Shown one piece after another: positions 2,903 to 55,295 of a DNA stretch of 64,000 nucleotides. This DNA comes from Burkholderiales bacterium (GTDB taxonomy: Bacteria; Pseudomonadota; Gammaproteobacteria; Burkholderiales; JAEUOS01). The stretch spans positions 7,464 to 71,463 of the forward strand of contig JAEUOR010000040.1 in NCBI GenBank assembly GCA_016790635.1. The letters are read 5' to 3'. The translations under genes were made by a program, and so were the position numbers. Positions within the stretch are counted from its first letter, which is position 1; every line of letters begins with the position of its first letter. Below the pieces are notes generated by a model that was not told the DNA's origin, did no database searches, and worked only from the letters and a program-made list of their open reading frames with translations.

Positions 2903-2914
2903 GTGCATTCCGCT

Positions 2915-2948: not shown

Positions 2949-3005
2949 CGGTACCCTGCGTTCAGAAGGAGGTGGCCCGACCCATTCGATCGGGTCCAGG
3001 ACGAC

Positions 3006-3389: not shown

Positions 3390-3468
3390 ACGACTGGCGG
3401 GGCATGGCAGCCGCGGCGCCGTGATCGGCCGACGCGGCACACGCGGCCCGGCACGGCGAACGACGTGA

Positions 3469-4188
3469 TCACTGCGCCGCCGCGCCCCTGACGTCGTCGG
3501 CGTCGATGATGACGAGCCCCGTGCCGGTGTCCGGCAGCGAGCGCGCGGCGGCCAGCGCGACCAGACGCGCGCTGGGAGGCTGGTAGCTCTCCGGCATCAG
3601 GCCATGCACCTGGCGCAGCAGGAAAGCCGCCAGCCGCTTGCCGAAGTTGCCCTGGTGCGCGAACTTGTCGGGCGCGGCCGGTCGCACCAGCGCGAGGGTC
3701 TCGAACCCCAGTGCGAAGAGTTCGTACTCGACCAGGTTCATGAGGTTCTTGCGAAACGCCGCGGAGTGCGCATAGATCGCCACCGGCGACACCAGCGCGA
3801 GCCGCTCGATCCCGGCTGCGCGTGCGGCAGCAGCAGCCGGCATCACTTCCGCGATGGAGAGCGCGCGATAGGCCTCGTCCCGCCGGTAGTACGAATGCCT
3901 CTCGCCGATCACGAAGAAGGCATCGCGCACCTGCGGCCAGGGTGCCTCGTGCAGTGCCCGCGTCTCGGGCACGTGGTGGGCCACCAGTTTGCGCGTGGTG
4001 CTGGGCAGCGGCAGGCGCGTGACGGCCACCACCTCGCCATAGTGCGCGCCGCCAAGCAGTTGGTTGACCAGGGCCTCGCCGGTGGCGCCGCACGCACCCA
4101 GCACCAGCGCCCGCGGTGCGGCGGGCGGGCCGGCTTCGCGTTCAGCAGCACCATCCGCCCGCAGGATATTTCCAACCAGTTGATCCAC
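3469..4188 (-). CDS. NAD(P)H-binding Rossmann-fold protein (atypical SDR-like)
   Basis: GTG start at 4188 preceded by GGGAGGGG. Glycine-rich dinucleotide motif LVLGACGATGEALV near the N-terminus. Confidence 0.7.
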   Translation of the reverse strand: MDQLVGNILRADGAAEREAGPPAAPRALVLGACGATGEALVNQLLGGAHYGEVVAVTRLPLPSTTRKLVAHHVPETRALHEAPWPQVRDAFFVIGERHSYYRRDEAYRALSIAEVMPAAAAARAAGIERLALVSPVAIYAHSAAFRKNLMNLVEYELFALGFETLALVRPAAPDKFAHQGNFGKRLAAFLLRQVHGLMPESYQPPSARLVALAAARSLPDTGTGLVIIDADDVRGAAAQ

Positions 4189-4251
4189 GCCCCTCCCGCG
4201 CGGCGGCGCCGCTCGACACTCCAGCGGCCGATTATCACGGCCACGCGCGCT

Positions 4252-4557
<306 letters not shown>

Positions 4558-4607
4558 TTACCTTGCAGGTAATGGACGCGCGAGAGCGTTGGGCTACCAT
4601 TGCGCAC

Positions 4608-5459
4608 ATGATTCCGGCCACACTGCCTGCCAACCAGACCGATCGCCAGCCCGCGCCGGCCGCGCGCAGCGTGGGCGACCTGCTGCGCTCCTGGCGCGCG
4701 CGCAGGCGCGCATCGCAACTCGACCTGGCGACCGACGCCGGCATCTCTCCCCGGCACATGAGCTTTGTCGAGACTGGCCGCTCGCAGCCGAGCCGCGAAC
4801 TGGTGCTGCGCCTGGCCGAGCGCCTGCAAATGCCTCTGCGCGAGCGCAACGCGCTGCTGCACGCGGCGGGCTTTGCGCCGCTCTACTCCGAACGCTCGCT
4901 CTCGGACCCTGCGCTGGGCCCGGCACGCGAGGCCATCGATGCGGTGCTGCGCGGCCACGAGCCCAACCCCGCGCTTGCCGTCGACCGCCGCTGGACCATG
5001 CTGGCCGCCAACCGTGCCGTGGCGCCGCTGCTCAAGGGCATCGCCCCGGACCTGCTGGCCCCGCCCTTGAACGTGCTCAAGCTCTCGCTGCATCCCGCGG
5101 GGCTGGCGCCGCGCATCGTCAACTACGCCGACTGGCGCTCGCACCTGATGGCGCGACTCAAGCGCGACATCGACCTGACCGGCGATCCCGGCATCATCGA
5201 CCTCAAGGAAGAGTTGATGCGCTACCCGGTGCCGGAGCACGCCCGCCTGCAAAAAGCGGGCTCACTGCCTGCGTCGCTGATGGTGGTGCCCCTGATGCTC
5301 GACTTCGGTGGCGCGGTCCTGTCGTTTCTTTCCACCATCACCGTCTTCGGCACGCCCGTGGACGTCACGCTGTCGGAGATCGCGATCGAGTCGTTTTTTC
5401 CGGCCGACGCGGCGACCGCGCAGGCGTTGCGCCAGTCCTTTCCAGCCACTGCCAACTGA
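4608..5459 (+). CDS. XRE-family HTH transcriptional regulator with MmyB-like C-terminal domain
   Basis: HTH segment LRSWRARRRASQLDLATDAGISPRHMSFVETGRSQPS followed by an MmyB-like region (PALAVDRRWTMLAANRA...). The start is either ATG 4608 or ATG 4572. Divergent from atpE. Confidence 0.8.
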   Translation: MIPATLPANQTDRQPAPAARSVGDLLRSWRARRRASQLDLATDAGISPRHMSFVETGRSQPSRELVLRLAERLQMPLRERNALLHAAGFAPLYSERSLSDPALGPAREAIDAVLRGHEPNPALAVDRRWTMLAANRAVAPLLKGIAPDLLAPPLNVLKLSLHPAGLAPRIVNYADWRSHLMARLKRDIDLTGDPGIIDLKEELMRYPVPEHARLQKAGSLPASLMVVPLMLDFGGAVLSFLSTITVFGTPVDVTLSEIAIESFFPADAATAQALRQSFPATAN

Positions 5460-5461
5460 AT

Positions 5462-6247
5462 TCAAGGGCGCGGTGCGACCGGTTTGCCGTCACCGGCGCC
5501 AACGCTCGCCGACCCCGTCACGCGCCGTACTCCCCAGCCGATCGGCTTTCGCGCATTGCCGGGATGCCGCGCGTCCGGCCCCCAGATCGCCTGGTAGGTG
5601 TCCAGGCAGCGTCCGGCGACCTGCAGCCGCGCCGCCACGACAAAAAGCGACAGCCACCACAGGCCGATGACGAGCCACATCCAGCGTGGCGCATCGGCCA
5701 GGGCGAGCCCGGCGACGATGGTGCACACGGCGAGGACCAGGGCCGCGTACCCCGCGGCCTTGTGCACGCGCTCGAACCAGACGCGCTGCGGCGTCATGTC
5801 GTAATGATCACCATGCAGATCGATGATCGACCCATCGGCGGCCAGGCGTGGCGCGGTCGGTCCGCCCTTGCTGCCGCGCAGGTGCGCGCCCAGCAGTTGC
5901 ACCACAGCCAACACCAGCACGCTCCAGCCGGCCAGCGTATGGATGCGAAACAGCGCGTCCGACCGCGCGCTCGCGCCCCACACCAGCCACAGGCCGAGCG
6001 CGGTGGCGGCCAGCGCGGCGTAGTTGAGCCGGCGATGACTGTGCCACCAGAACGTGTTGTCCAACTCATCGGGCCACTTCTGGCGCGGCGTCACCTTGTA
6101 AAAGCGGGCAATCAGAATTGCCAGCGGAACGGCGATGGCCCATGCCGCGACCATCAGGCGCGCGTGCCAGGCCACCGCGGGCGCAATCACGTGCTCAGTT
6201 GCGCCGCTGATCGGCGCGGCGAGCCAGGCCAGCGCCGCCTCGATCAT
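5462..6247 (-). CDS. Cytochrome b561-like multi-histidine integral membrane protein
   Basis: ATG at 6247 (MIEAALAWL...). About six hydrophobic helices with conserved-looking His residues in consecutive helices (WHARLMV, WWHSHRRL, IHTLAGW/GAHLRG, VHKAAGY). The N-terminal extension of the track ORF overlaps the upstream gene and was rejected. Confidence 0.6.
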   Translation of the reverse strand: MIEAALAWLAAPISGATEHVIAPAVAWHARLMVAAWAIAVPLAILIARFYKVTPRQKWPDELDNTFWWHSHRRLNYAALAATALGLWLVWGASARSDALFRIHTLAGWSVLVLAVVQLLGAHLRGSKGGPTAPRLAADGSIIDLHGDHYDMTPQRVWFERVHKAAGYAALVLAVCTIVAGLALADAPRWMWLVIGLWWLSLFVVAARLQVAGRCLDTYQAIWGPDARHPGNARKPIGWGVRRVTGSASVGAGDGKPVAPRP

Positions 6248-6275
6248 GCGCGCCGCCCCACGGGCGAGGTCCGCC

Positions 6276-6611
6276 TCAGGCCTGCCATACGCCGTAGCCC
6301 TTCTCGCGCAGCGCGATCGCCAGCTCGACCTCCATCTCGCACGCCGCCGCATAGGGCATGGGGTTGTAGACCTCGTAGAGTTCGGGCAGCAGGCGCACGC
6401 CATAGCGGCGCACGAAGCCATTGGCCTGGATGCCGGCCTTGTGCTTGTCGAAGCGCACGTCGGGCGACAGCCCGGTCATGCCGACGTAGACACAGGGATT
6501 GCCGTAGCAAAAATCCGGATTGGAGCGGCGAAAGCGCGGTTCATCGAGCACATCCAGGGAAAGAAGCACGACGTAGACGCTGTGGTGGTGGCGGGCTGGG
6601 CGACGCGGCAC
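6276..6611 (-). CDS. Small GIY-YIG-like domain protein
   Basis: 111 aa. VYVVLL ... CVYVGMTGLSPDVRFDKHKAG ... E-x-E-LAIALREKGY resembles the UPF0213/GIY-YIG pattern (YVY...YTGxT...R...H..G). The spacing between the first two motifs is longer than canonical. Confidence 0.5.
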   Translation of the reverse strand: MPRRPARHHHSVYVVLLSLDVLDEPRFRRSNPDFCYGNPCVYVGMTGLSPDVRFDKHKAGIQANGFVRRYGVRLLPELYEVYNPMPYAAACEMEVELAIALREKGYGVWQA

Positions 6612-16728: not shown

Positions 16729-17688
16729 TCAGTCTTCCGCCTTGATGTTGCGTGCCTTCGCGAGCCTGGCGTAGGTCGCCTTCTCGCGCTCAAAAAATTT
16801 CATGGCATCCGCCGTGGTCAGGCCGAGCGGCTCCACACCGGCGGCGATCAGCCGCTCGCGCACCGCCGGTTCGCGCACGACCTGGCCGATCTCTGCGGCG
16901 ATGCGTTCGATGATGGGCCGCGGCGTCGCGGCCGCCATGAACACGCCGGTCCAATTGGTGAAGCTGTAGCCCTGGAAGCCCGGCAGTTCCGCCATCGCCG
17001 GGATGTCTGGCGTCGCAGCGGCTCGCTTCTCGCTCGTCACCGCGACAATCCTGATCTTGCCCGCCTTGTGCGGACCGATCACCGGCGGCATGCCGACGAT
17101 GCCGACCTCCACCTGGCCGCCCAACAGGTCCGTCACCGCGGGCGCTGCGCCGCGATAGGGAATGTGCACGATGAACGCGCCGGCGAGGGTCTTCAGCGAT
17201 TCGCCGGCGAAGTGCTGCGAACTCCCCGAGCCCGGCGTGCCGTAGGACAGCTTGCCCGGGTTCTTTTTCGCGAAATCGAGGAGTTCCCGGATACTGTTGA
17301 TCCCGGTCTTGGGATGCACCGCGATGGCAAGCGCCGTGTCGCCGATCACCGTGACCGCGGCCAGGTCCTTCTCCCAGTCATAGGCCATCCGTAGGCCCGC
17401 GACCGCGCCCACGACCGTCTCGGCGGGCGAAGCGACGATGAACGAATAGCCGTCGGCCGGCCCCTTGGCGATGCCGTCAGTGGCGATGGTGCCGGAGGCG
17501 CCGGGCCGGTTCTCGACCACGAACTGCTGCTTCAACACCTCGGACAATCGCGTGGCCACCACGCGCGCGGTGAAGTCATGCCCGCCGCCGGCCGGGTAAC
17601 CGACGATCACGCGCACCGGCTTGGCCGGCCAGGTCTGCGCAAACGCGGAACTGCAGATGACGAGCGCCGCCGCCAAAAGCATTCTCAT
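16729..17688 (-). CDS. Bug family (TctC-like) tripartite tricarboxylate transporter substrate-binding protein
   Basis: Signal peptide MRMLLAAALVICSSAFAQ followed by WPAKPVRVIVGYPAGGGHD, the hallmark Bug N-terminus. Confidence 0.9.
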   Translation of the reverse strand: MRMLLAAALVICSSAFAQTWPAKPVRVIVGYPAGGGHDFTARVVATRLSEVLKQQFVVENRPGASGTIATDGIAKGPADGYSFIVASPAETVVGAVAGLRMAYDWEKDLAAVTVIGDTALAIAVHPKTGINSIRELLDFAKKNPGKLSYGTPGSGSSQHFAGESLKTLAGAFIVHIPYRGAAPAVTDLLGGQVEVGIVGMPPVIGPHKAGKIRIVAVTSEKRAAATPDIPAMAELPGFQGYSFTNWTGVFMAAATPRPIIERIAAEIGQVVREPAVRERLIAAGVEPLGLTTADAMKFFEREKATYARLAKARNIKAED

Positions 17689-21260: not shown

Positions 21261-22229
21261 CTAGTCGACCTTGAGCTTGAGCGTGCGCACCAGTTCCCCC
21301 AGGCGGTCGTACTCCCCTGCCACCAGGCGCGCGAACTCAGCCGGCCCGGCGGACATGACGTTGAGCCCGATCCCCTGCATGCGTTCGATCAAGGCCGGCT
21401 GGCGCAGGAGTTCCTCGACGTCGCGATGCACCCGGTCGACGACCGCGCGCGGCGTACCGGCCGGCGCCAGGAGGCCCATCCAGGGACGCACCGCCTCGAA
21501 GCCCGGCAACAGTTCGTCGATGGTCGGCACGTCCGGCAGCTGCGCCAGGCGTCGCGGCCCGGTCACCGCCACCGCGCGCACCTTGCCGGCACGCAGGTGC
21601 GGCAGCATGGGGGTCAGCGCGTCCTGCTGCAGGTGGATGCGCCCGCCGATCAGGTCGGTGGTCACGGCGGCGACGCCCTTGTACGGCACGTGGGTCGCGA
21701 CCAGGCCGGTGCGTGCCTTGAGGGCCTCCATGTTCAAGTGCGGCACCGTGCCGCTGCCCGCCGAACCGTAGTAGAGCCCGCCGGGAGTGGTCTTGCTCAA
21801 CTGCACCAGGTCGGCCAGGCTGCCCCACTTGAGACCGACGTTGGCCACGAGCAGGCCGTCCGGGACGGCGACGCCGACAATCGGCACGAAATCCTTCTTC
21901 GGGTCGTAGCCGACGTTGGGATAGACGTGCGGATTGATGCCGAACGCGGCCATGGCCGAGAACAGCAGCGTGTAGCCGTCGGTCGGCGCCTTCGAGACCG
22001 CCTGCGCGCCCAGGCTGCCGCCCTGGCCGGGACGGTTCTCGACCACCATGGCATGTCCCCACTTCGCCGTCAGCCCGTCGGCGACCAGGCGCGCGGTCAC
22101 GTCGGCGACGTTGCCGGCCGCATACGACACCACCAGGCGCACCGGGCGTTCGGGATAGGCCGCCTGCCCGAGTGCGGCCGGGGCCGCGCAGGCTACAGCG
22201 AAGAGGGCGACGTATGCTCGCAGAATCAT
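21261..22229 (-). CDS. Bug family (TctC-like) substrate-binding protein
   Basis: Signal peptide followed by YPERPVRLVVSYAAGNVAD. C-terminal PAEFARLVAGEYDRLGELV. Confidence 0.9.
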   Translation of the reverse strand: MILRAYVALFAVACAAPAALGQAAYPERPVRLVVSYAAGNVADVTARLVADGLTAKWGHAMVVENRPGQGGSLGAQAVSKAPTDGYTLLFSAMAAFGINPHVYPNVGYDPKKDFVPIVGVAVPDGLLVANVGLKWGSLADLVQLSKTTPGGLYYGSAGSGTVPHLNMEALKARTGLVATHVPYKGVAAVTTDLIGGRIHLQQDALTPMLPHLRAGKVRAVAVTGPRRLAQLPDVPTIDELLPGFEAVRPWMGLLAPAGTPRAVVDRVHRDVEELLRQPALIERMQGIGLNVMSAGPAEFARLVAGEYDRLGELVRTLKLKVD

Positions 22230-28124: not shown

Positions 28125-29357
28125 ATGGCAGGGATTCTCGACGGGATCGTGGTACTGGATCTCACGCGCTTTTTCTCGGGACCGCAGGCGACGGTGCTGC
28201 TCGCGGGCATGGGCGCCGAAGTCATCAAGATCGACGACCCGGCGACCGGCGACCCGACCGCGTTCGCACCGCCGTTCGACGGACCGGGCGGCATCGCGAT
28301 GGAGCGCCGCACGCCGCAGGACATGGGGCTTGCCTACCTGAAGCGGGCGCGCGCCAAGAAGTCGATGACCTTGAACCTCAAGTCGGCGGAGGGGCGGCGC
28401 ATCTTCCTGGCCATGGTCGCGCGCGCCGATGCCGTCGTCGAGAACTTCAGCGCCGGCGTCGCAGACCGGCTCGGCATCGGCTACGACGACCTCAAGGCCG
28501 TCAACCCGCGCATCGTCTGCTGTTCGATCACCGGCTACGGGACGACCGGCCCGGCGCGCGACGCCAAGGCCTACGACCTGATGGTGCAGGCCGCCGTCGG
28601 CTTCATGGCGATGACCGGCCACCCCGACGAGGCGCCGGTCAAGGCCGCCTCGCCCCTGTCCGACGCGATTAGCGGCGTGTTCGCGGCCAAGGGCGTCATC
28701 GCCGCGCTGCTGCATCGCGAGCGCACGGGCCACGGCCAGGCGGTCGAAGTCGCGATGGCTGATTGCCTCTTCGCGCTCGCCTTCGACGAACCGATCGACT
28801 GCTACGAGCGCCTCGACCTGGCCGCGCGGCAGGGCAACCGCATCATGCGGTTTTCGCCCTTCAATGCCTACCCGGCGGCCGACGGCTGGGTGGTGATCGG
28901 CGCGGCCACGCATGCCGAATGGGTCGCGCTGCTTGAGGCCATGGGCCGCGCCGACCTGAAGGACGACGCCGACATGATGCGCGTCGGCTGGCGCATCATG
29001 CACAACGACCAAGTCGACGCTGTCGTCTCGGCATGGACCAGGGGCCTGACCAAAGACCAGATCGCGCGCGCCCTCGATGCGGCTGGCGTGCCGTCGAGCC
29101 CGATCCGCTCGACCGACGAGGTGCTGCGCTGGGAGCAGCTGCGCGCGCGCAGCATGATCGTGCCGCTTCGCAATCCGCTCAGCGGGGCGCATGCCGCCGC
29201 CGCCGGACCCGGCTTTCCTATCAAGTTCGGCGCGACTCCCGCGGGCTACGACGCGCCCGCGCCGATTCCCGGCGCGCACACCGACGAGATGCTCGCGCGC
29301 TTTGCGGGCCTGGACGCGGACGAGCGCGCGCGCCTGCGCGCCGCGGGTGTCATCTAG
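28125..29357 (+). CDS. Type III (CaiB/BaiF family) CoA-transferase
   Basis: N-terminus MAGILDGIVVLDLTRFFSGPQATVLLAGMGAEVIKIDDP is the family hallmark. 410 aa. Confidence 0.9.
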   Translation: MAGILDGIVVLDLTRFFSGPQATVLLAGMGAEVIKIDDPATGDPTAFAPPFDGPGGIAMERRTPQDMGLAYLKRARAKKSMTLNLKSAEGRRIFLAMVARADAVVENFSAGVADRLGIGYDDLKAVNPRIVCCSITGYGTTGPARDAKAYDLMVQAAVGFMAMTGHPDEAPVKAASPLSDAISGVFAAKGVIAALLHRERTGHGQAVEVAMADCLFALAFDEPIDCYERLDLAARQGNRIMRFSPFNAYPAADGWVVIGAATHAEWVALLEAMGRADLKDDADMMRVGWRIMHNDQVDAVVSAWTRGLTKDQIARALDAAGVPSSPIRSTDEVLRWEQLRARSMIVPLRNPLSGAHAAAAGPGFPIKFGATPAGYDAPAPIPGAHTDEMLARFAGLDADERARLRAAGVI

Positions 29358-29383: not shown

Positions 29384-30427
29384 ATGACCACAGAATCCCC
29401 CTACGCCAGCGCCGCGATCGAAGTCGACGACGCCTTCGCCGCGATCGAGCTCTACCAGGACAATGGCTGGACCGACGGCTTGCCGATCGTACCGCCGACC
29501 GCGCCCTTGATCGCGCGCTTTCTCGACGCGGCGCGGCTCGCGCCAAGCGCGGTGATCGGCGTCGAGCCGGTGCGCCGGCGCAGCATCAGCGCCGAGAAGG
29601 TCGCGATCGCCGCGGTGATGGCAGGCTGCACGCCGGCATGCATGCCGGTGGTAGTGGCGATCGTGCGCGCGATGTGCGACCCCTCCTACGCGCTGCACGG
29701 CAGCACCGCCAGCACCGGCGGCAGCGCGCCCTTCATCGTCGTCAACGGGCCGATCCGCACCGCGCTGGGCATGAACGCCACCCACAACGTGCTGGGCAAC
29801 GGCGCGCGCGCCAACGCCACCATCGGCCGCAGCGTTCGTCTCTTGCAGCAGAACGTGCTGGGCGGCGTCCCCGGGCAGCTCGATCGTTCCACCCTGGGCC
29901 ACCCCGGCAAGTTCACCTTTTGCATCGCCGAGGACGAGGAAGACAGCCCCTGGCCGTCGCTGGCGACCGAGCGCGGCATGCCGGCCGGCAGCTCGGCGGT
30001 GACGGTCATGCAGGTCGAGTCGCCGCACCAGATCATGAACGAGTGGACGCACGACCCGCGCGAGATCCTGGACACCTACGCGGCGGCCGTGCGGGCCAAC
30101 ATGCTGACCTACTCGATCTGGGAGGGCAACTACGCCTACGTGATCGCCAAGCAGCACCGCGAGATCTTCGCCGCCGCCGGCTGGAGCAAGCAGATGATCC
30201 GCGAATACACCTTCGAGGTCGCGACGGTCAAGCGCGGCGACTGGCGCTCGGTCGGCAAGGCGGCCGTCGCCGGGCGCAAGGACGAGAACAAGGTCTACCG
30301 CGCGCTGCGTTCGCCCGACGACCTGCTGATCATCGCCGCCGGCGGACCGGCGGGCGGGTTTGGTGCGATCATTCCGCCGTGGTACGGCAAGAAGTCGCTC
30401 GCGGTCACCGCCGCGATCGACGCCTGA
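29384..30427 (+). CDS. Conserved hypothetical protein (347 aa), immediately upstream of the UGSC selenoprotein gene
   Basis: ATG at 29384, in frame within ORF 29033..30427, 26 nt after the CoA-transferase stop. Host-like codon bias. I do not recognise the domain (WTDGLPIVPPT..., AVMAGCTPACMPVV...). Confidence 0.7.
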   Translation: MTTESPYASAAIEVDDAFAAIELYQDNGWTDGLPIVPPTAPLIARFLDAARLAPSAVIGVEPVRRRSISAEKVAIAAVMAGCTPACMPVVVAIVRAMCDPSYALHGSTASTGGSAPFIVVNGPIRTALGMNATHNVLGNGARANATIGRSVRLLQQNVLGGVPGQLDRSTLGHPGKFTFCIAEDEEDSPWPSLATERGMPAGSSAVTVMQVESPHQIMNEWTHDPREILDTYAAAVRANMLTYSIWEGNYAYVIAKQHREIFAAAGWSKQMIREYTFEVATVKRGDWRSVGKAAVAGRKDENKVYRALRSPDDLLIIAAGGPAGGFGAIIPPWYGKKSLAVTAAIDA

Positions 30428-30454
30428 TGCAATCGTCAAGAAAGGAAACCAGCG

Positions 30455-30985
30455 ATGTCGATTACCGTATTTGATCCGCGCCAGTCGCCGCAGGGCAGCG
30501 CACTCGCCATGGCGCCGCCACTCGCGACCCTCGAGGGCGCAGTCGTCGGCATGATCGACAACGCCAAGATCGGCACCGAGCGCCTGTTCGACTTCATCGA
30601 GGAAATCCTGCGCCGCGAGCACGGCGTGCGCGAGTTCATCCGCCGCCGCAAGCCCGACGCCTCGCGGCCGGTGCCGCCGGCGATGCTCGCGCAGATGGCC
30701 GGCGCCGACGCGATACTTGCCGCCACCGGCGACTGAGGGAGTTGCTCGTCGTGCAGTTTGCACGACGCCATCGAAGCCGAGCGGCTCGGGATCCCCGCAG
30801 TCGGGATCATGACCGATCGCTTCACCACCAGCGCGCGCCTGGTCGCCGAACTGAACGGCCTGAAGGGCTACCCGTTCGCGGTCATCCCGCATCCGATCGC
30901 CAACAACGACGACGAGGCGTTGCGGGCCAAGGCGGCGACCGCGGTCGGCGACATCGTCGCCATGCTCACGCGGCGCGCGGCCTGA
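30455..30985 (+). CDS. UGSC-family selenoprotein (GrdB C-terminal-domain-like, UxxCxxC), with TGA 30734-30736 decoded as selenocysteine
   Basis: ORFs 30455..30736 and 30758..30985 share one frame, separated only by TGA. Read-through gives ...ADAILAATGD-U-GSCSSCSLHDAIEAERLGIPAVGIMTD...VIPHPIANN. A SECIS-like hairpin starts 11 nt after the TGA. RBS AAAGGAAA lies before ATG 30455. Confidence 0.8.
30734..30766 (+). promoter_or_regulatory. Sec codon plus bacterial SECIS-like element
   Basis: TGA (30734-30736), an 11-nt spacer GGGAGTTGCTC, then a perfect inverted repeat GTCGTGCA-GTT-TGCACGAC (30748-30766) with G and U in the apical loop. The spacing matches the E. coli fdhF SECIS geometry as I recall it. 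Confidence 0.7.
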
Positions 30986-31091
30986 CCGCCGCCGCATCTC
31001 AACAACCCCAAACCTGACCGGCGCCGGCAAGAACTAGGGCGCACGGGCCTATCCACCGGGCAGACAACACATTTTCCGCGGAGACAACACC

Positions 31092-32102
31092 ATGCAGATT
31101 TCGATGACCTGGCGCCCGCTGCGGCGCGCATTTACAGCCGCCTGCACGCTCGCGGCCTGCCTTGGACTCGCTGCGCCGCAGGCCCTGGCGCAACCCTGGC
31201 CTGCGCGCACGGTCACCATCATCGTGCCGCTGGCCGCCGGCACCGGCATGGACACCTTGGTACGCATGTACGCGGAGCGCCTGTCGGCCTCGATCGGCCG
31301 TCCGGTGATCATCGACAACCGCCCGGGCGCCGCGCTGATGCTGGGCGTCACCGCCCTGGCCAAGGCGCCGCCCGACGGCTACACCCTGAGCATCGCGACC
31401 GCGCCGGCGATGGCGATCAACCCGACGCTCTACAAGCAGATGCCCTTCGATGTCGAGCGCGATTTCGTGCCGATCTCGCTGTACGTGAAATCGCCCTTCA
31501 TCCTGGTGGTGAGCCCGAACCTGGGACCGCGCAACGTGCAGGAGCTGATCCGCCACACGCGCGACAACGCCGGCAAGATGAGCTACAGCACACCCGGCAC
31601 CGGCGCGGCCCAGCACCTGGCGGTCGAGTTCATGAAGCAGAAGTTCAAGCTCGACATCACCCACGTGCCCTACAAAAGCAGCCCGCTGTCGGTCGCCGAC
31701 ATCATGGCCGGCCACGTGTCGATGGCCTTCGCCGAGGCCGGCATTTCCCTGCCGCTGATCCGCGACGGCAAGCTGCGCGCCCTGGCCGTGTCTTCGCTGG
31801 CGCGCCTGCCGGGCCTGCCGGACGTGCCGACCTTTGCCGAGGCGTCCGCCACGCCCGACTTCGAGGCGGTGTCCTGGCACGTGCTGCTCGCGCCGGCCGG
31901 CACGCCGCCGGAAATCGTCGGCCGCCTGCAGCAGGAACTGCGCCGCATCCTGGCGACGGCGGAAGTGCAGCAGCGCATCGCCAGCCTGGGGCTGATCCCG
32001 CACGACGCGCCGTCGACCGACGCAATCAACCAGTACATGCGCGCCGAGCGCGAGAAATGGAGCGCGGTGGTCAAGTCACTCGGACTGGCCGGCTCACAGT
32101 GA
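31092..32102 (+). CDS. Bug family (TctC-like) substrate-binding protein
   Basis: Signal peptide followed by WPARTVTIIVPLAAGTGMD. 336 aa. Confidence 0.9.
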   Translation: MQISMTWRPLRRAFTAACTLAACLGLAAPQALAQPWPARTVTIIVPLAAGTGMDTLVRMYAERLSASIGRPVIIDNRPGAALMLGVTALAKAPPDGYTLSIATAPAMAINPTLYKQMPFDVERDFVPISLYVKSPFILVVSPNLGPRNVQELIRHTRDNAGKMSYSTPGTGAAQHLAVEFMKQKFKLDITHVPYKSSPLSVADIMAGHVSMAFAEAGISLPLIRDGKLRALAVSSLARLPGLPDVPTFAEASATPDFEAVSWHVLLAPAGTPPEIVGRLQQELRRILATAEVQQRIASLGLIPHDAPSTDAINQYMRAEREKWSAVVKSLGLAGSQ

Positions 32103-32197: not shown

Positions 32198-32662
32198 ATG
32201 ACCGTAGTCCGTGAAAAGACCACCATCAAGATGCGCATGGAAGGCACGGCGCAATCGCATTCGCGCACCGACGTCGCCATGCGCGGCCTGACCAAGATCA
32301 TCGACGAGCCGGTCGAACGCGGCGGCACCAACCTGGGCATGAGCCCGACGGAGACCTTCGCCGCATCCCTGATCGGCTGCACCAACGTCATCAGCCACAA
32401 GATCGCGCACAAGCACGGCATCGAATTCCAGGCCATGCGCATCCGCCTGGAGGCCGACTTCGACCGTCGTGGCGTCACGCTGCAGGAAGATGTCGCGGTG
32501 CCCTTCCCGGCCATGGTCCTGCACATCGACGTCACGACCCGCGCAACGCCGGAAGAGATCGCCACGGTGCAACGCGAACTGGCGATGTACTGCCCGATCG
32601 CCAAGCTGATCCGCGCCTCGGGCACGACGCTCACCGAACACTGGACCATCATCGCACCCTGA
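32198..32662 (+). CDS. OsmC/Ohr family protein (peroxiredoxin-like)
   Basis: 154 aa with the two family cysteines in LIGCTNV and MYCPIAK. Confidence 0.8.
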   Translation: MTVVREKTTIKMRMEGTAQSHSRTDVAMRGLTKIIDEPVERGGTNLGMSPTETFAASLIGCTNVISHKIAHKHGIEFQAMRIRLEADFDRRGVTLQEDVAVPFPAMVLHIDVTTRATPEEIATVQRELAMYCPIAKLIRASGTTLTEHWTIIAP

Positions 32663-32765
32663 TTCGACGCCCGGGTTGCGCCCAGGCATCCCGCCTCCTG
32701 CCCGACCCGGGTAGACTGCTCGGCTGACTCGCGGCAGAGAGTTTTCCCCTGAAAGGATTGAGCAC

Positions 32766-33476
32766 GTGAAAGACGATCTTCGCAACGCAAAGTACGCCAT
32801 CGACCTGGGTCCCCAGCCTTCGCTGCCGATCGCCGGTTCCGATCTGCGCTTCCCGGTCGGGCGCATCTACTGCGTCGGCCGCAACTACGCCGACCACGCG
32901 CGCGAGATGGGGCATGACCCCGACCGTGAGCCGCCGTTTTTCTTCATGAAGCCGGCCAATGCGATCGTGCAGAACGGCGCCACGCTCGCCTACCCCGTCG
33001 GTACCAAGGACTGCCACCACGAGATCGAGCTTGTCGTGGCCATCGGCAAGGGCGGCAAGAACATTCCGGTCGAGCGCGCGCTGGACCATGTGTGGGGCTA
33101 CGGCGTCGGACTGGACATGACGCGCCGCGACCTGCAGGGCGAGGCCAAGAAGATGGGCCGCCCCTGGGAGATGGGCAAGAGCTTCGACGAGTCCGCGCCG
33201 ATCACCGCCCTCAAGGCCGCCGCCGAGATCGGCCACCCGGCCAAGGGCACGATCCGGTTGAGAATCAACGGCGAGGTGCGCCAGGAGGGCGATCTGGCGA
33301 TGCAGATATGGAACGTCCAGGAACAGATCGCCTACCTGTCCAACCTGATCACCCTCATGCCCGGCGACCTGATCATGACCGGCACGCCTGCCGGCGTCGG
33401 TCCCATCAAGCGCGGCGACAAGCTTGAAGGCCATGTCGACGGCGTCGGTGACCTGACGGTCAGTTACGCGGCTTAA
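32766..33476 (+). CDS. Fumarylacetoacetate hydrolase (FAH) family protein
   Basis: GTG start at 32766. RIYCVGRNYADHAREMG and HEIELVVAIGKGG motifs. Confidence 0.85.
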   Translation: MKDDLRNAKYAIDLGPQPSLPIAGSDLRFPVGRIYCVGRNYADHAREMGHDPDREPPFFFMKPANAIVQNGATLAYPVGTKDCHHEIELVVAIGKGGKNIPVERALDHVWGYGVGLDMTRRDLQGEAKKMGRPWEMGKSFDESAPITALKAAAEIGHPAKGTIRLRINGEVRQEGDLAMQIWNVQEQIAYLSNLITLMPGDLIMTGTPAGVGPIKRGDKLEGHVDGVGDLTVSYAA

Positions 33477-33523
33477 GTGCAATCGGCTGGGGCAACCCGC
33501 ATGCGAGGCGCCACGGCGGACTG

Positions 33524-34747
33524 ATGGACGCGCTTGCCGGCATTCGCGTCATCGATCTCTCGCACGTGATCGCGGGGCCGACCGCCTCGCACTACCTGGC
33601 CCTGCAAGGCGCCGAGGTGATCAAGGTCGAGAACCCCTGGACCGGCGACATCCTGCGCCACGGCGTGCGCGATCGTCTCGATACGGCGATCACCGTCGGC
33701 TTCGCCGCGATCAATGGCGGCAAGAAGTCGCTTGCCATCGACCTGAAGGATGCGCGCTGCCGCGACGCGCTCATGGCGCTGGTCAGGACGGCCGACGTAT
33801 TCATAGAGAACTTCCGTCCCGGCGCGGTGGCGCGCCTGGGCTTCGACCACGCCGCGGTCGCGGCGGTCAAGCCGGACATCATCTACGCCTCGATCTCCGG
33901 TTTCGGCCAGGAGGGCGCCTGGGGCAGGCGCGCCGCCTACGACCACGTGGTGCAGTCGGCGGTCGGCATGGCGATGATGCAGGGCATCGAGGGCGGCGAC
34001 CCGATGAAGGTGGGCTTTCCGGTCATCGACACCGCCACCGGCATGATCGGCGCGCAGGCGATCCTGTCGGCGCTGATCCGCCGCCTGCGCAAAGGCGAAG
34101 GCTCTTATCTCGACATCTCGATGGCGCAGGCCGCGCTGCAGCTGATGTGGCCGGAAGCCGCGCGCGCGGCGGTGAGCGGCGGCGATGCGCCGCGCGTGGG
34201 CAATCGCGGCTTCTCGGGCAGCCCGGGAGGCTCGACCTTCCGCTGCGCCGACGGCTGGGTCTCCACCGCGGCCAATACCGCGCGCCAGTTTCGCGTCCTG
34301 TGCACCGTCGTCGGCGTGCCCGAGGTATTGCAGGACCTGACGCTGCTCGACCTCGATGCGCTGGCGCGCGGCGCCGGCTTCGTGGTCCCGGTCGACCGCG
34401 AGCGCCTGCAGGCCATCCTCGAGCAAGCGATCCTGCGCATCCCGGGCGCCGAGCTCGAAGCCAGGCTGGCGGCAGAAGACGTACCCTGCGCGCGGCTTGC
34501 GACGCTGGCCGAATTCATCAAGCGCGCAGCAAGCGAAAAGCTCTTGACCCTGCCGCTGCGACGCACGGCCTACGCAGAGGGCGCGCTCATCGACTTCGGC
34601 GCCGGCTACCGGGCCGACCGCAGCGACGGTGCCCCGCTTGCCCCTGCGCCACGCCTGGGCCAGCACACCGCCGCGCTGCTCGCCGAAGCCGGGATGTCGG
34701 CCGCGCAGGTCGAGGCACTCGCCAGCGCGGGCAAGGCCAGGCTCTGA
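33524..34747 (+). CDS. Type III (CaiB/BaiF family) CoA-transferase
   Basis: MDALAGIRVIDLSHVIAGPTASHYLALQGAEVIKVENP. 407 aa. Second paralogue in the cluster. Confidence 0.9.
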   Translation: MDALAGIRVIDLSHVIAGPTASHYLALQGAEVIKVENPWTGDILRHGVRDRLDTAITVGFAAINGGKKSLAIDLKDARCRDALMALVRTADVFIENFRPGAVARLGFDHAAVAAVKPDIIYASISGFGQEGAWGRRAAYDHVVQSAVGMAMMQGIEGGDPMKVGFPVIDTATGMIGAQAILSALIRRLRKGEGSYLDISMAQAALQLMWPEAARAAVSGGDAPRVGNRGFSGSPGGSTFRCADGWVSTAANTARQFRVLCTVVGVPEVLQDLTLLDLDALARGAGFVVPVDRERLQAILEQAILRIPGAELEARLAAEDVPCARLATLAEFIKRAASEKLLTLPLRRTAYAEGALIDFGAGYRADRSDGAPLAPAPRLGQHTAALLAEAGMSAAQVEALASAGKARL

Positions 34748-34772: not shown

Positions 34773-35747
34773 TCATTCGGCCTTGATGTTGGCGTCCTTG
34801 ATGACCTTGGCCCACTTGGCCAGGTCCGCCTTGATTTTTTCCAGCGTGCGCGCCGGGTTGGCGAAGTCGGGATCGCAGCCGGCCGCCTTGTAGTTTTCCT
34901 GCAGGCCGCGATCCTCGCCCGCTTTGAGCAGCGCCTGCGACAGGCGGTTGACCACCTCCGCAGGCATGCCCGCCGGTCCGATCAGGCCGAACCAGGCCGA
35001 CGACTCGAAGCCCTTCAGGCCCAACTCGTCGAGCGTCGGAACGTCGGGAAACGCCGCCGAGCGCTTGGCCGAGGTGACCGCGAGAGCGCGAATGCGCCCG
35101 GTCTTCACCGGTCCGACCGCCGGGCCGAGCGAAGAGAAGAGAAGCGGCACCTGCCCGCCGATCAGGTCGGTCATCGCGGGCGCCCCGCCCTTGTACGGAA
35201 CGTGCAGCAGATCGGCGCCGGTGAAGCTCTTGAAGTACTCGCCTGACATGTGGTGCGGACCGGCGATGCCCGAGGTGCCATAACTCCACTTGCCGGGTTC
35301 GCGCTTGGTCAGTGCGATCAGTTCGGCGACGGTTGTCGCCGGCACGGAAGGGTGCGCCACCAACAGGCTGGGCAGGACGCACACCGAGCCCAGGTGCGTG
35401 AACGAGGTGATGCCGTTGTAGGCCACCTTGGTCAGGTGCGGCGCGACGGTCAGCGGCCCGCTGTCGGCCAGATAAAGCGTGTAGCCGTCAGGCGCGGTCT
35501 TGGAGATCACGTCCGCCGCCACCGCGCCGGCTGCGCCAGGGCGCGGCTCGATGACGATCGGCTGGCCGAGCAGCGGCTCGAGCACCTTGGCCAGCGGACG
35601 CATCGCGCCGTCCGCGGCGCCGCCCGGCGTATAGCCGAGCAGAACGCGCACCGGCTTGTTGGGGTAGCTCTGCGCAGCCGCAGGCGGCGCGGCCGCCAGC
35701 ACCGCCGCCAGGACCGCCAAACCGTAAACGCCGTTTCGAATTGCCAT
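34773..35747 (-). CDS. Bug family (TctC-like) substrate-binding protein
   Basis: ATG at 35747 preceded by GGAGGAGA. MAIRNGVYGLAVLAAVLAAAPPAAAQSYPNKPVRVLLGYTPGGAADG. Only the C-terminal 324 codons of the 760-aa track ORF are real. Confidence 0.9.
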   Translation of the reverse strand: MAIRNGVYGLAVLAAVLAAAPPAAAQSYPNKPVRVLLGYTPGGAADGAMRPLAKVLEPLLGQPIVIEPRPGAAGAVAADVISKTAPDGYTLYLADSGPLTVAPHLTKVAYNGITSFTHLGSVCVLPSLLVAHPSVPATTVAELIALTKREPGKWSYGTSGIAGPHHMSGEYFKSFTGADLLHVPYKGGAPAMTDLIGGQVPLLFSSLGPAVGPVKTGRIRALAVTSAKRSAAFPDVPTLDELGLKGFESSAWFGLIGPAGMPAEVVNRLSQALLKAGEDRGLQENYKAAGCDPDFANPARTLEKIKADLAKWAKVIKDANIKAE

Positions 35748-43059: not shown

Positions 43060-44046
43060 CTAGGTGCGCTCGAAGTTGACGCTCTTGAGCAACTCGCCGC
43101 CGCGCGCAATCTCGCTGCGGATGAAGCGGCGGCTGTCCTCGATGGTCTCGGCCACCGGCTCGAGCAGGGTGCCGGTCAGCCGCTTGACGACCTCGGGGTC
43201 GCGCATGGTCTCCTGGATCACGCCGTTGATCGCCAGCTGGATCTCGCGCGGTGTGCCCTTGGGCGCCCAGACGCCGTACCAGGAATAGGCGTCGAAGCCG
43301 GCCAGCCCGCCCTCCGCCATGGTCGGCAGGTCCGGCGCGAGCACCGAACGACGCGGCGTGGCGATGCCGACCGCGCGCACCTTGGTCGGATCCTTGGCAG
43401 CGGGCAGGAGCGCGAAGCTGGGGTCGATCAGGAGCTGCACCGCACCGCCCATGATGTCGGTCAGCGCCGGCACCGTGCCCTTGTACGGAACCATCGGAAT
43501 CTTGAGCCCGGTACGGCGCAGGAAATCGATGGTCGCCAGGTGTCCCGCCGAGCCCATCGAGGAGATCGCGAAGTTCCACTTGGCCGGCTCGGCGCGGGCC
43601 GCGGCGATGATCTCCGGCAGGGTCTTTTGCGGCAAGGCCGCCGACATGACGCACACCAGCGGCGCGACTGCGGTGCGCCCGACGAATTCGAGGTCGACTT
43701 CCGGGTTGAAGTCCGCTGCCTTGAGCACCAGCGGCATGACCGCGGTGTTGAACGCGCTGGCCAGGAGCGTGTAGCCATCCGGCTCGGCCTGGATCACCGC
43801 GCGCGTGCCGACGATGCCGGCGCCGCCGACGCGGTTTTCCGTCACGGTGGCGCCGCCGAACTTGGCGCGGATGCGCTCGGCGATGAGGCGGCCGAGGGCA
43901 TCGTTCGCCGCCCCGGGCGGCCACGGCACGATCACCCGCACCGTCTTGTCCTTGGCCGGCCAGGCCGATTGCGCCCGGGCGGGCATGCCCAGCGCGGACA
44001 GGCTCGCCGCGCCCGCCGCAGCGGTGATCATGCGTCTTCTATTCAT
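43060..44046 (-). CDS. Bug family (TctC-like) substrate-binding protein
   Basis: MNRRRMITAAAGAASLSALGMPARAQSAWPAKDKTVRVIVPWPPGAAND. Start is ATG 44046 (GGGGGAGA upstream) or ATG 44061. Confidence 0.9.
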   Translation of the reverse strand: MNRRRMITAAAGAASLSALGMPARAQSAWPAKDKTVRVIVPWPPGAANDALGRLIAERIRAKFGGATVTENRVGGAGIVGTRAVIQAEPDGYTLLASAFNTAVMPLVLKAADFNPEVDLEFVGRTAVAPLVCVMSAALPQKTLPEIIAAARAEPAKWNFAISSMGSAGHLATIDFLRRTGLKIPMVPYKGTVPALTDIMGGAVQLLIDPSFALLPAAKDPTKVRAVGIATPRRSVLAPDLPTMAEGGLAGFDAYSWYGVWAPKGTPREIQLAINGVIQETMRDPEVVKRLTGTLLEPVAETIEDSRRFIRSEIARGGELLKSVNFERT

Positions 44047-48085: not shown

Positions 48086-49048
48086 ATGCACTCCCGCTTG
48101 CGCGCCCTGACCGGCGCTCTGCTCATCGCACTATTGTTGCCGGCCACCTCTGCCCACGCGCAACGCGTGATCCGACTGATCGTCCCGTTCGGCCCGGGAG
48201 CGGTGCAGGACGCAGTGGCACGCACCTTCAACAACGAGATGGGGCAGTTCCTGGGCGCCAGCGTGGTGATCGAGAACCGCGCGGGCGCCGGCGGCACCAT
48301 CGGCGCCCTCGCGGTGGCCAAGGCCCCGGCCGACGGCAACACCCTGATCCTGGCCGGGTCGAGCCACCACATCGGCGGCCACATGTACAAGCAGCTGGCC
48401 TACGATCCCTTGAAGGACTTTGTCGGCGTCACGTCCTTGGGCACGGCCGGCTATGTCATCACCGTCCCGCCCAATCTCGGCGTCAACACGCTGGCCGATT
48501 TCGTGCGCGAGGTGAAGTCCAAGCCGGGCAAGCTCAACTTTGCCTCGGCCGGCAACGGCAGCGCCACGCATCTCGGCATGGCCGCCTTCAACGCCCGCGC
48601 CGGCCTGGACATGCTGCACATCCCCATGAAATCCACCGGCGACGCGGTCAACGAGGTGCTGGCCGGGCGCGTGCAGGCGGTCGCAGCGGCCACCGCCGGC
48701 GTGGTCGGCTTCAAGGGCGACGTGCGCCTGCGCATGCTGGCCTTCACCGGCAAGAACCGCACCCAGTATCTGCCGGACATCCCGACCGTCGCCGAGGCCG
48801 GATATCCCGGCTTTCAGTACGAGGCCTGGGTCGGCATGCTGGCCCCGGCGGGCACGCCGCGCGCCGAGGTCGAGCGCATCAACGCCGCCGCACAAAAAGC
48901 GCTGGCCCTGCCGGCGGTGCAGGAGCGAATGAATCGGCTCGGCTCGGAGTTCGCGGTCATGACGCCGGAGCAGTTCCAGGCGGTGCTGCGCGCCGACTGG
49001 GAGAGCATGGGCAACATCGTCAAGATCTCGGGCGCCAAGATCGAGTAG
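48086..49048 (+). CDS. Bug family (TctC-like) substrate-binding protein
   Basis: ATG at 48086 preceded by AAGGAGA. MHSRLRALTGALLIALLLPATSAHAQRVIRLIVPFGPGAVQD. Confidence 0.9.
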   Translation: MHSRLRALTGALLIALLLPATSAHAQRVIRLIVPFGPGAVQDAVARTFNNEMGQFLGASVVIENRAGAGGTIGALAVAKAPADGNTLILAGSSHHIGGHMYKQLAYDPLKDFVGVTSLGTAGYVITVPPNLGVNTLADFVREVKSKPGKLNFASAGNGSATHLGMAAFNARAGLDMLHIPMKSTGDAVNEVLAGRVQAVAAATAGVVGFKGDVRLRMLAFTGKNRTQYLPDIPTVAEAGYPGFQYEAWVGMLAPAGTPRAEVERINAAAQKALALPAVQERMNRLGSEFAVMTPEQFQAVLRADWESMGNIVKISGAKIE

Positions 49049-54311: not shown

Positions 54312-55295
54312 TCACTCTGGCTGAATGTTCGCGCGGCGCACGACGGCGCCCCACTTCGCGGCCTCGGCCTTCACGAAGGCGCCAAACGCCTCCGGCGTGC
54401 CACCTTGCGGCTCGCTGGCATGCGCGGCGATGGCCTCACGCACCGCGGGCATCTGCAGGATGGCGTTCAGCTCCTTGTTCAACTGCTGCACGATTGCGGC
54501 CGGTGTGCCCCTGGGTGCAATGATCCCCTGCCAGTTGTAGGACTCGAAGCCGGCGAGGCCGGCCTCGGCCATCGTGGGCACGTCCTTCAGCAGCGGGATG
54601 CGTCGGCTGCTCGTCACGGCCAGCGGGCGCACCCTGCCACCCTGGATCGAAGGCAGGGCCGCGTAGCCCATTTCGAACATCATCGCGATGTGGCCCCCTG
54701 CGAGGTCAGACGCCGCGGCGCTGCCACCCTTGTACGGCACGTGGGTGAGGTCGATGCCGGCCAGGTGCTCGAGCATCGCCCCGGAGAGGTGGTGCGCGCC
54801 GCCGATGCCGCTGCTGCCATAGGTGAGCTTGCCCGGCTCCGCACGCGCCTTGGCCACCAGTGCGCCCAGCGTCGTGACGCCTTGTGCCGGATGCACGGAA
54901 AGGATCAATGGCGCCCGCTCCAGCAGGATCACCGGTTCGAAGTCGGCATCGGGGTCGTAGGGCAGCTTCTTCATCAGCGAGCGGTTCACCGCAAGTGGCG
55001 CCAGGTTGCCCATGCCGATCGTGTACCCGTCAGGTGCGGCGCGGGCAATCAGCAACGTACCCGTCACGCCTCCGGCCCCGGGGTGGTTGTTGACGACGAC
55101 TTGCTGGCCGAGCACCTTGCCCAGGCGCTCGGCTACCTGGCGGGCGCGGATGTCGCCAAAGCCTCCGGCAGCGTAGGGCACGATCAGCATCACCGGCCGC
55201 GTCGGCCAGGCACCCTGCGCCATAGCGGGCAACGAGGCGGCGGTCGTGGCAATACCGACCAGAAGCGCGGTCAGCCAGCGGGTCAATCGGTTCAT
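54312..55295 (-). CDS. Bug family (TctC-like) substrate-binding protein
   Basis: ATG at 55295 with GAGGA upstream. MNRLTRWLTALLVGIATTAASLPAMAQGAWPTRPVMLIVPYAAGGFGD. Confidence 0.9.
   Translation of the reverse strand: MNRLTRWLTALLVGIATTAASLPAMAQGAWPTRPVMLIVPYAAGGFGDIRARQVAERLGKVLGQQVVVNNHPGAGGVTGTLLIARAAPDGYTIGMGNLAPLAVNRSLMKKLPYDPDADFEPVILLERAPLILSVHPAQGVTTLGALVAKARAEPGKLTYGSSGIGGAHHLSGAMLEHLAGIDLTHVPYKGGSAAASDLAGGHIAMMFEMGYAALPSIQGGRVRPLAVTSSRRIPLLKDVPTMAEAGLAGFESYNWQGIIAPRGTPAAIVQQLNKELNAILQMPAVREAIAAHASEPQGGTPEAFGAFVKAEAAKWGAVVRRANIQPE

Follow-up and report, generated by a model that had tools for sequence, protein, structure and literature searches.

A UGSC-family selenoprotein gene and its recurrent partner gene in a Burkholderiales genome

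In this work, we describe a gene and its neighbors in a 64,000-nucleotide stretch of DNA from a Burkholderiales bacterium (contig JAEUOR010000040.1, positions 7,464 to 71,463 of the forward strand). This whole 64-kb stretch is referred to below as the window, and coordinates given without a locus name are counted from its first letter. The gene in question lies near the middle of the window within a cluster of co-directional genes, and its frame contains an internal TGA at codon 94, followed closely by a hairpin of the selenocysteine insertion sequence (SECIS) type. It almost certainly encodes a selenoprotein of the UGSC family, in which the UGA would specify selenocysteine (Sec). Directly upstream lies the gene of a larger protein, here called PX, whose homologs accompany UGSC genes in both Bacteria and Archaea. 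The cluster begins with a gene for a family III coenzyme A (CoA)-transferase, while the next gene downstream of the UGSC gene encodes a binding protein of the tripartite tricarboxylate transporter (TctC) type. The positions of all these features are collected in Table 1.

Between its ATG and its terminal stop codon, the frame has the TGA at codon 94 as its sole interruption. The 176-aa read-through product contains ...AATGD-U-GSCSSCSLHDAIEAERLGIPAVGIMTDRF...AVIPHPIANN..., and the Sec-bearing peptide of the predicted product of about 19 kDa would be GD-U-GSCSSCSLHDAIEAER. The GC content of third codon positions is of the coding type in both halves of the gene (0.84 before the TGA and 0.91 after it; the GC content of the window is 68.7%). 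The start of the apparent second open reading frame (ORF), TTG 30758, is merely the first start-like codon 3' of the TGA, and this ORF has neither a ribosome-binding site nor a conserved start. A preliminary description of this DNA had claimed that the ORFs 30455..30736 and 30758..30985 are one frame cut by a TGA and that ORF calling splits the gene. Both claims are borne out, the first by the read-through product and the second by public gene calls, since the identical sequence occurs in several metagenome runs (SRR10555723 and SRR12144677 among them), where it is annotated as a 93-aa piece and a 58- or 75-aa piece. In public protein sets, the ortholog group consists almost wholly of N-terminal fragments of 93 aa, cut off at the UGA (profile-search matches P0323-P0408, including the window's own P0327); these fragments are a systematic mis-annotation of Sec forms. 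Other pairs of ORFs in one frame were also considered as selenoproteins (4251/4252, 7749/7750, 53742/53743, and 61290/61291), and they were rejected as ordinary neighbors with spacers and starts of their own.

Family searches with hidden Markov models (HMMs) were performed with the read-through protein, U being written as C. The NCBIfam model NF041046, 'UGSC family (seleno)protein', was matched at 133.9 bits (cutoff 125) over positions 2-147 of 147, and the Pfam model PF24696, 'UGSC', at 171.6 bits (cutoff 25) over positions 1-171 of 172, which means that both halves of the gene make up one Pfam domain from end to end. Both scores exceed the curated cutoffs, in agreement with the preliminary description, which had pointed to the UGSC family of the protein-family catalogs, and 'UGSC family (seleno)protein' is also the RefSeq label of distant members. 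The name 'UGSC-containing protein' dates from 2007, when it was given to a selenoprotein without an assigned function (Zhang and Gladyshev 2007/2008). The GOS survey counted 255 Sec and 21 Cys forms of it, which placed UGSC fifth among selenoprotein families by abundance, with the highest frequency in non-marine samples. The survey ascribed to it 'likely a Trx-like fold' and reported reads in which it is fused to a domain termed 'Unknown_1'. The family is listed without a function in reviews of 2022 and 2026, the later of which places it among prokaryotic selenoproteins with largely uncharacterized functions.

Homologs of the window protein fall into two groups. The first consists of full-length single polypeptides of about 175 aa with GD-C-GSCSSC, in which Cys stands opposite the TGA; P0002-P0006 are Cys homologs of the kind that the preliminary description had suggested looking for. 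The second consists of many fragments of about 93-106 aa that stop exactly at ...GD, which gene callers have produced by truncating Sec forms. When one genome per species was scanned, 172 relatives were obtained, and codon conservation was read in the best 80 loci; other locus sets served for the overall TGA count (89 loci), adjacency (82 orthologous loci), codon usage (81 non-redundant Sec loci), and neighborhood (49 large loci). In all 80 best loci, each from a distinct species, a TGA occupies the position of codon 94 and is followed by a nearly invariant GSCSSCSLHDAIEAERLG, and the TGA is kept in 85 of the 89 loci overall. Almost all of the 80 belong to Burkholderiales or other Betaproteobacteria, including the cultured Sheuella amnicola (NBD-18) and Paracandidimonas lactea (Q2-2), and an ortholog in L010 is 89% identical. 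Amino-acid identity among related loci is 73% after the TGA versus 76% before it, and in either half the synonymous codon differs at 39% of conserved residues, indicating the same constraint upstream and downstream of the TGA. The opposite pattern, envisaged in the preliminary description, of homologs that end at the TGA with no conservation of the downstream frame, was not seen.

The U94-G95-S96-C97 columns are at least 90% conserved among 12 very divergent members. Across divergent members, only U/C94 and C97 are kept, while C100 is not conserved, and the motif is thus U-x-x-C; of the UxxCxxC motif proposed previously, the U-x-x-C part stands and the last Cys does not. One family member from an Arthrobacter sp. 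ERGS1:01 plasmid (L097, 5001-5816) is 271 aa long; its C-terminal extension of about 95 residues, in which a further CxxC occurs (...GAACSDCVMP...), may be an additional domain for redox or metal binding.

The hairpin begins 10 nt past the TGA. The preliminary description had reported it correctly as a real structure, but in a slightly short 8-bp form (30748-30766, 11 nt past the TGA), whereas the full stem has 9 bp. Since the window holds just 7 hairpins with a perfect stem of at least 9 bp and a loop of 3-8 nt, its placement is more than chance, the probability that such a hairpin starts in the 7-nt slot after a given codon being about 8e-4. The remaining six hairpins of this class start at 28974, 45906, 47449, 51781, 61820, and 62314. 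The hairpin was checked by hand against the consensus for bacterial SECIS elements (bSECIS) given by the 2026 review of prokaryotic selenoproteomes, and it agrees with every published criterion. Specifically, the apical loop GUU has 3 nt (3-9 nt in the consensus), the upper stem has 9 bp (4-16 bp), the first two loop positions are G and U (usually G, then G or U), the distance from the UGA to the loop is 19 nt (16-37 nt), and the minimum free energy is -13.3 kcal/mol (-7.5 kcal/mol or lower). Rfam lacks a suitable general model for bacterial SECIS elements; it yielded no SECIS or other relevant family, either at gathering thresholds over the whole window or at E ≤ 10 over 30400-31100, and returned only chance matches to microRNAs and small RNAs.

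Because the hairpin overlies conserved amino acids, synonymous sites were examined in the 81 Sec loci. The Ser codon in the loop is AGT in 81 of 81, a codon that accounts for 3% of the Ser codons in window genes, and the stem codons are fixed as well (TCG in 76, TCG in 81, and TGC in 81 of the 81). Outside the hairpin, five different codons are used for the Ser two codons past the UGA, and those of a nearby Glu (+15) are split 41:40. Synonymous divergence is 0.16 in the hairpin codons versus 0.46 in the flanks, and the changes found in the stem are G-U wobbles and one compensatory change from G-C to A-U in L064. In Cys-form genes, where other codons specify the same peptide, no hairpin is formed. 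Divergent Sec forms possess different hairpins with the same spacing of 10-11 nt, each with G-U in the loop; the copy on an Acidovorax plasmid has GUCGUGGA-GUG-UCCACGAC, and fused paralogs, which are described below, have GCCCGC-CGUGUU-GCGGGC atop a longer lower stem.

Additionally, genes for Sec incorporation are found close to orthologous UGSC genes. Among the 49 large loci, selB lies within 8 kb of the gene in 12 and selA in 10, and in L014, selA, selB, a thioredoxin reductase (TrxR)-like gene, a CoA-transferase gene, PX, and UGSC all lie on one strand.

The most constant neighbor is PX. No Pfam, NCBIfam, or PDB match was obtained for eight diverse members of this family, even at E ≤ 10, and PDB sequence searches with the UGSC protein, the UGSC profile, and PX likewise gave no match. 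The PX family is nevertheless very common: clustered at 90% identity, it makes up more than 5,000 groups, and at 50% identity 4,887. Its signature, derived from 69 divergent members, comprises DGLP..PPT, AGC82xP, GP, RANAxIGR, and C180xxE, with Cys82 conserved in 94% and Cys180 in 97% of them. A crude script placed PX immediately 5' of UGSC on the same strand in 75 of the 82 orthologous loci; on inspection, six of the seven exceptions proved to be adjacent too, so that PX adjoins UGSC in 81 of 82, and in the seventh, L068, it lies 2.5 kb away on the opposite strand. PX also adjoins UGSC in all eight distant loci (Natrinema, Halorientalis, Halalkalicoccus, Arthrobacter, Embleya, Paracoccus, Acidovorax, and Variovorax), three of them haloarchaeal, in which UGSC is only 25-36% identical and the adjoining PX homolog 34-45% identical (E 1e-50 to 1e-87). 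No second copy of UGSC or PX was found within the window.

The two proteins also occur as fusions. In L017 (about 1410-3150), L032 (about 4700-6400), L042 (about 3340-5000), L049, and L054, a single ORF contains a UGSC domain (...GMGC-U-GSCTPAV...) and a PX domain; this second copy is about 30-35% identical and has its own SECIS-like hairpin 11 nt past the UGA. These genomes therefore carry both the split and the fused version of the system. Cys-form fusions are represented by P0209, P0228, and P0273, and a Sec-UGSC fused to PX is carried by the conjugative IncP plasmid p2-T1 of Acidovorax sp. T1 (L096, NZ_CP021650.1, 4992 to about 7490). The fusion described in 2008 as UGSC/Unknown_1 is probably the one seen here. 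In other proteins (P0190, P0199, P0208, and P0258), an AhpC-TSA/Redoxin domain takes the place of UGSC on PX. These observations make it very probable that UGSC and PX are obligate functional partners.

Several further arrangements of these genes were noted. The plasmid gene table of p2-T1 lists the fusion only as a 96-aa hypothetical protein, and its frame appears to run into IS91-like transposase-related sequence and may be disrupted. On haloarchaeal plasmids of Halorientalis (L098, 3917-6579) and Halalkalicoccus (L102, 3858-6557), the order is partner-UGSC-partner, which suggests a heteromeric partner in these organisms. Six PX-family proteins of about 710-740 aa (P0151, P0152, P0158, P0161, P0165, and P0180) have two PX-domain matches and are tandem duplications.

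A possible source of electrons is found in the relatives. A TrxR-like flavoprotein of about 300 aa is encoded beside the pair in 14 of the 49 large loci (about 29%). Of the models, TIGR01292 (thioredoxin-disulfide reductase) fits it best, with 189 bits against a cutoff of 343, and AhpF comes next with 167 bits; the dithiol site SHCADCDGP is kept in all seven proteins examined. The gene order is trxB-trxA-PX-UGSC on the Arthrobacter plasmid and trxB-TctC-SDR-PX-UGSC in Variovorax SRS16.

To obtain a predicted fold, the natural Cys homolog P0005 was modeled (pLDDT 86.2, pTM 0.82). In this model, five beta-alpha units follow one another, and the U/C-G-S-C motif lies where strand 3 gives way to the N-terminal end of helix 3. 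A thioredoxin fold would instead show a mixed sheet (beta-alpha-beta-alpha-beta-beta-alpha) and have its CxxC after strand 1. The top PDB matches found with Foldseek are flavodoxin-like, namely the FMN reductase MsuE, WrbA, and flavodiiron flavodoxin domains, and no thioredoxin-like structure is among them. The thioredoxin-like fold mentioned in the literature is therefore not supported, and the protein is predicted to be a single flavodoxin-like alpha/beta domain. The N-terminus of a helix that follows a strand is the usual position of a redox-active CxxC, and a redox center placed there in the model fits a selenol/thiol couple. No structure of GrdB or PrdB came up in the PDB searches by sequence or by fold.

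The remaining genes of the cluster (Table 1) may point to organic-acid metabolism, and the betaproteobacterial acyl-CoA context claimed in the preliminary description is upheld by domain annotation and by related loci. An ortholog of the CoA-transferase (about 70% identity) lies directly 5' of PX in 23 of the 49 large loci, and a TctC gene lies inside the locus in 40. Recurrent neighbors elsewhere include CoA-transferases or ligases, a CoA ester lyase, transporters, and regulators of the IclR or LysR type. No terminator-like site was detected on the plus strand between 27700 and 34900, and the promoter and terminator scan was otherwise uninformative. In Natrinema (L095), the module has neighbors annotated as phosphosulfolactate synthase and as members of the isocitrate lyase/phosphoenolpyruvate (PEP) mutase family; the former annotation recurs near it in Arthrobacter (L097) and the latter in Acidovorax (L096). 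These genes may hint at the substrate class in those lineages. The OsmC-like protein encoded two genes downstream of UGSC (32198-32662, plus strand) weakly matches NF041052, 'OsmC-related (seleno)protein' (62.6 bits, cutoff 95), and has Cys (...LIGCTNV...) where selenoprotein members have Sec, which makes it a Cys-form relative.

Table 1. Coordinates of the features discussed, as positions in the window
Feature	Position	Strand	Remarks
Family III CoA-transferase, first gene of the co-directional cluster	28125..29357	+	PF02515, 358 bits; below all NCBIfam equivalog cutoffs
Partner protein PX, 347 aa	29384..30427	+	conserved Cys82 and Cys180; directly 5' of the UGSC gene
Shine-Dalgarno-like AAGGA	30442..30446	+	8 nt 5' of ATG 30455; seen in the sequence itself
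Gene assigned to the UGSC selenoprotein family	30455..30985	+	176 aa including Sec94; stop TGA 30983-30985
In-frame UGA, read here as Sec codon 94 of U94-G-S-C97	30734..30736	+	Cys (TGC) in homologs P0002-P0006 and L001/L008
SECIS-type hairpin CGUCGUGCA-GUU-UGCACGACG	30747..30767	+	perfect 9-bp stem 30747-30755 / 30759-30767
TctC-type tripartite tricarboxylate transporter binding protein	31092..32102	+	PF03401, 214.7 bits; next gene 3' of the UGSC gene
OsmC-like protein, FAH-family hydrolase, second family III CoA-transferase (rest of the cluster)	32198..34747	+	Pfam matches
TctC paralogs	16780-17676, 21273-22157, 31092-32102, 34794-35672, 43072-43962, 48164-48943, 54336-55286	-, -, +, -, -, +, -	seven in 64 kb ('Bug'-type)

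Taken as a whole, these data are best explained by a Sec-containing redox subunit that works with PX, receives electrons from a reductase, and serves an operon for an organic acid and its CoA derivative; we give this reading a probability of roughly 60%. The hairpin in the mRNA would act as a bacterial SECIS for SelB and Sec-tRNA, allowing the UGA to be read as Sec94. The U94/C97 pair would most likely cycle between a selenol/thiol and a selenenylsulfide form, and UGSC would be the small redox subunit of a two-protein system in which PX contributes Cys82 and Cys180. In the relatives, the oxidized UxxC center would probably be re-reduced by the TrxR-like flavoprotein through its CADC site or by neighboring TrxB/TrxA, and in the source genome such a reductase would have to lie beyond the window. 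The operons of the pair would combine uptake (TctC or TRAP) with CoA activation (family III CoA-transferase or acyl-CoA ligase) of an organic acid, and it follows from this combination that the step served is probably thiol- or selenol-dependent and likely reductive, acting on a carboxylate or acyl-CoA. The data show the reading frame, membership of the family, the Sec/Cys pair, the features of the SECIS, the linkage and fusion with PX, and the neighborhoods with TrxR-like and sel genes; that the pair cycles, which way electrons flow, that a complex forms, and what class of substrate is used are what we infer from the genes. For a redox relay fed by TrxR, we see the chances as even, and an acyl-CoA or organic-acid substrate is a rather doubtful suggestion.

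A number of observations weigh against this explanation or some part of it. The window contains no tRNA gene and, by tblastn, no SelA or SelB (SelD was not searched for). With neither a Sec machinery gene nor a tRNA-Sec in the window, we infer Sec decoding in the source genome from conservation. The window likewise contains no TrxR-like gene, and because 35 of the 49 relatives also lack one nearby, linkage to the reductant is not obligatory. A U/CxxC cycle is impossible in those family members that are missing the second Cys or both redox residues (P0228 and P0209). The structure model is that of a Cys homolog 57% identical to the window protein, its Foldseek matches are weak (TM-scores of 0.4-0.55), and the model of PX is poor (pLDDT 57.5), with a best E of 0.11 in the fold search and nothing matched. 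The adjacency of TctC carries little weight, since TctC genes are so abundant in the host genomes. Of the other genes of the cluster, OsmC is found near UGSC in 0 of the 49 large loci and FAH in 1 of 49, and the second CoA-transferase recurs at paralog level only. An expansion of TctC genes is typical of Alcaligenaceae and Burkholderiales.

The alternative that survives best is that UGSC is a true distant homolog of the Sec domain of GrdB and PrdB. Sec94 would then attack a substrate carbon covalently, as in the reductive C-N or C-X cleavage of Stickland-type reductases, with PX as an activator resembling GrdE or PrdA and with thioredoxin resolving the selenide-sulfide. The window protein does match TIGR01917 (GrdB) at 18.7 bits (E = 6.5e-4, cutoff 602), with residues 82-156 on model positions 335-403, which is the Sec-bearing segment; the matches to TIGR01918 (13.5 bits, cutoff 65.45) and to GrdF are weaker. 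Seven of 10 diverse UGSC domains give in-register matches to TIGR01917, TIGR01918, NF040794, NF040795, or TIGR04483 (E 6e-4 to 0.12), covering positions 335-410 of GrdB and, in one match, 129-180 of 238 in PrdB. The U-x-x-C motif is held in common, a larger partner protein is always present, and the Arthrobacter operon contains trxB-trxA, as clostridial grd operons likewise do. However, scores with the Grd and Prd models reach only 11-19 bits against cutoffs of 65-800, the Pfam GRDB model (PF07355) gave no match at E ≤ 10, and no GRDB-annotated protein is among the 120 listed matches of a profile search with the diverse UGSC alignment. Pfam and NCBIfam annotation of the 19.5-39.3 kb part of the window revealed no gene for GrdA, GrdC, GrdD, GrdE, or PrdA, and the hosts are aerobic Burkholderiales and haloarchaea. 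A 'split GrdB', in which PX would be GrdE, PrdA, or the N-terminal part of GrdB, was tried and rejected, as eight diverse PX proteins show no similarity to these at E ≤ 10. The sequence matches suggest that the Sec-containing subdomain is distantly homologous to that of GrdB and PrdB, not that the protein belongs to either family, and the earlier label 'GrdB-like' holds as a weak similarity of the Sec segment and fails for membership. Since a peroxiredoxin or redoxin domain can replace UGSC on PX, an electron relay fits better than covalent chemistry on the substrate, and we regard the Stickland-type mechanism as unlikely.

Slightly less probable still is that the pair forms an antioxidant or detoxification system, in which the UGSC selenol would act as a peroxidase or reductase and PX would be its target or a partner that processes electrophiles or peroxides. 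The fusion of PX to AhpC-TSA/Redoxin domains in other organisms would fit such a role, as would the resemblance of the TrxR-like neighbor to AhpF, the OsmC-like gene in the cluster, and the placing of most UxxC selenoproteins among thiol oxidoreductases in the literature. Against this, the OsmC gene is not kept with the pair, the predicted fold is neither peroxiredoxin- nor thioredoxin-like, and the consistent neighbors, from the CoA-related enzymes to the IclR and LysR regulators, are typical of substrate-inducible catabolic operons. Finally, that the TGA functions as a true stop codon or that read-through occurs without selenium, giving a 93-aa protein with or without a downstream peptide or a decaying pseudogene, would accord with the gene callers' 93-aa annotation and with the finding of no tRNA, SelA, or SelB gene in the window, but it is essentially excluded by conservation: the TGA and downstream frame persist in 80 of 80 species under purifying selection at the protein level, Cys homologs are single polypeptides and one Pfam domain spans both halves, the second ORF lacks both an RBS and a conserved start, the constraint at the RNA level coincides exactly with the SECIS-type hairpin, and selA and selB are physically linked to the orthologous operon in relatives.

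If the redox explanation is preferred, it can be extended, tentatively, to the proposal that UGSC and PX constitute an undescribed two-component (seleno)thiol enzyme, distributed from haloarchaea to Burkholderiales, which is fed by a dedicated thioredoxin-reductase paralog and has CoA-activated organic acids as substrates, making it an aerobic counterpart of GrdB and PrdB outside Stickland metabolism. If true, this would provide a biochemical role for an orphan selenoprotein family that ranks among the most abundant in aquatic metagenomes, and it would account for the retention of selA and selB beside the operon in some Burkholderiales, with UGSC as possibly their main Sec client. The pairing and fusion with PX, the replacement by peroxiredoxin-type domains, and the linked TrxR paralog define a two- or three-component system that can be reconstituted, which makes an abundant orphan family experimentally approachable. 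The storage of nearly a whole ortholog group as 93-aa fragments illustrates a practical problem of public annotation.

Several known systems can be compared with the one described here. Like the TrxB/TrxA and AhpF/AhpC pairs, it brings together a low-Mr flavoprotein of the TrxR type with a CxxC and a small (U/C)xxC protein, and a peroxiredoxin-type domain can hold the position of UGSC on PX. In contrast to those pairs, UGSC has no predicted thioredoxin fold, the terminal acceptor would be PX, a member of an uncharacterized family, and the TrxR-like gene is adjacent in about 29% of loci. The hairpin resembles the E. coli fdhF-type SECIS and the bSECIS consensus in being a stem-loop inside the ORF, 10-11 nt past the UGA, with a small apical loop starting with G-U; it differs in its perfect 9-bp stem without a bulged U and in its 3-nt loop. 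The upper stem of the fdhF element resembles the stem core GCA-GUY-UGC. What UGSC has in common with GrdB, GrdF, GrdH, and PrdB is the selenoprotein motif U-x-x-C, a weak in-register similarity confined to some 70 residues on either side of and including Sec, a larger second protein as a co-worker, and, in some loci, a thioredoxin system nearby. Unlike GrdB, UGSC has no N-terminal part of about 330 residues, and none of the Grd or Prd proteins is related to PX; the hosts are aerobic, and the context is one of CoA-transferase and transporter genes, not of Stickland fermentation.

The closest comparison is with the published UGSC family itself. The window protein shares with it the full-length HMM match, the U-G-S-C motif, the Sec/Cys dimorphism, a SECIS element directly 3' of the codon, and aquatic or soil proteobacterial hosts, and no essential difference was found. 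As the family has been published since 2007-2008 and is represented by NCBIfam and Pfam models, the result is the correct recognition of a known family and not the discovery of one. New to the published picture are the very probably obligate partner PX across Bacteria and Archaea, the links to TrxR-like and sel genes, and the predicted flavodoxin-like fold.

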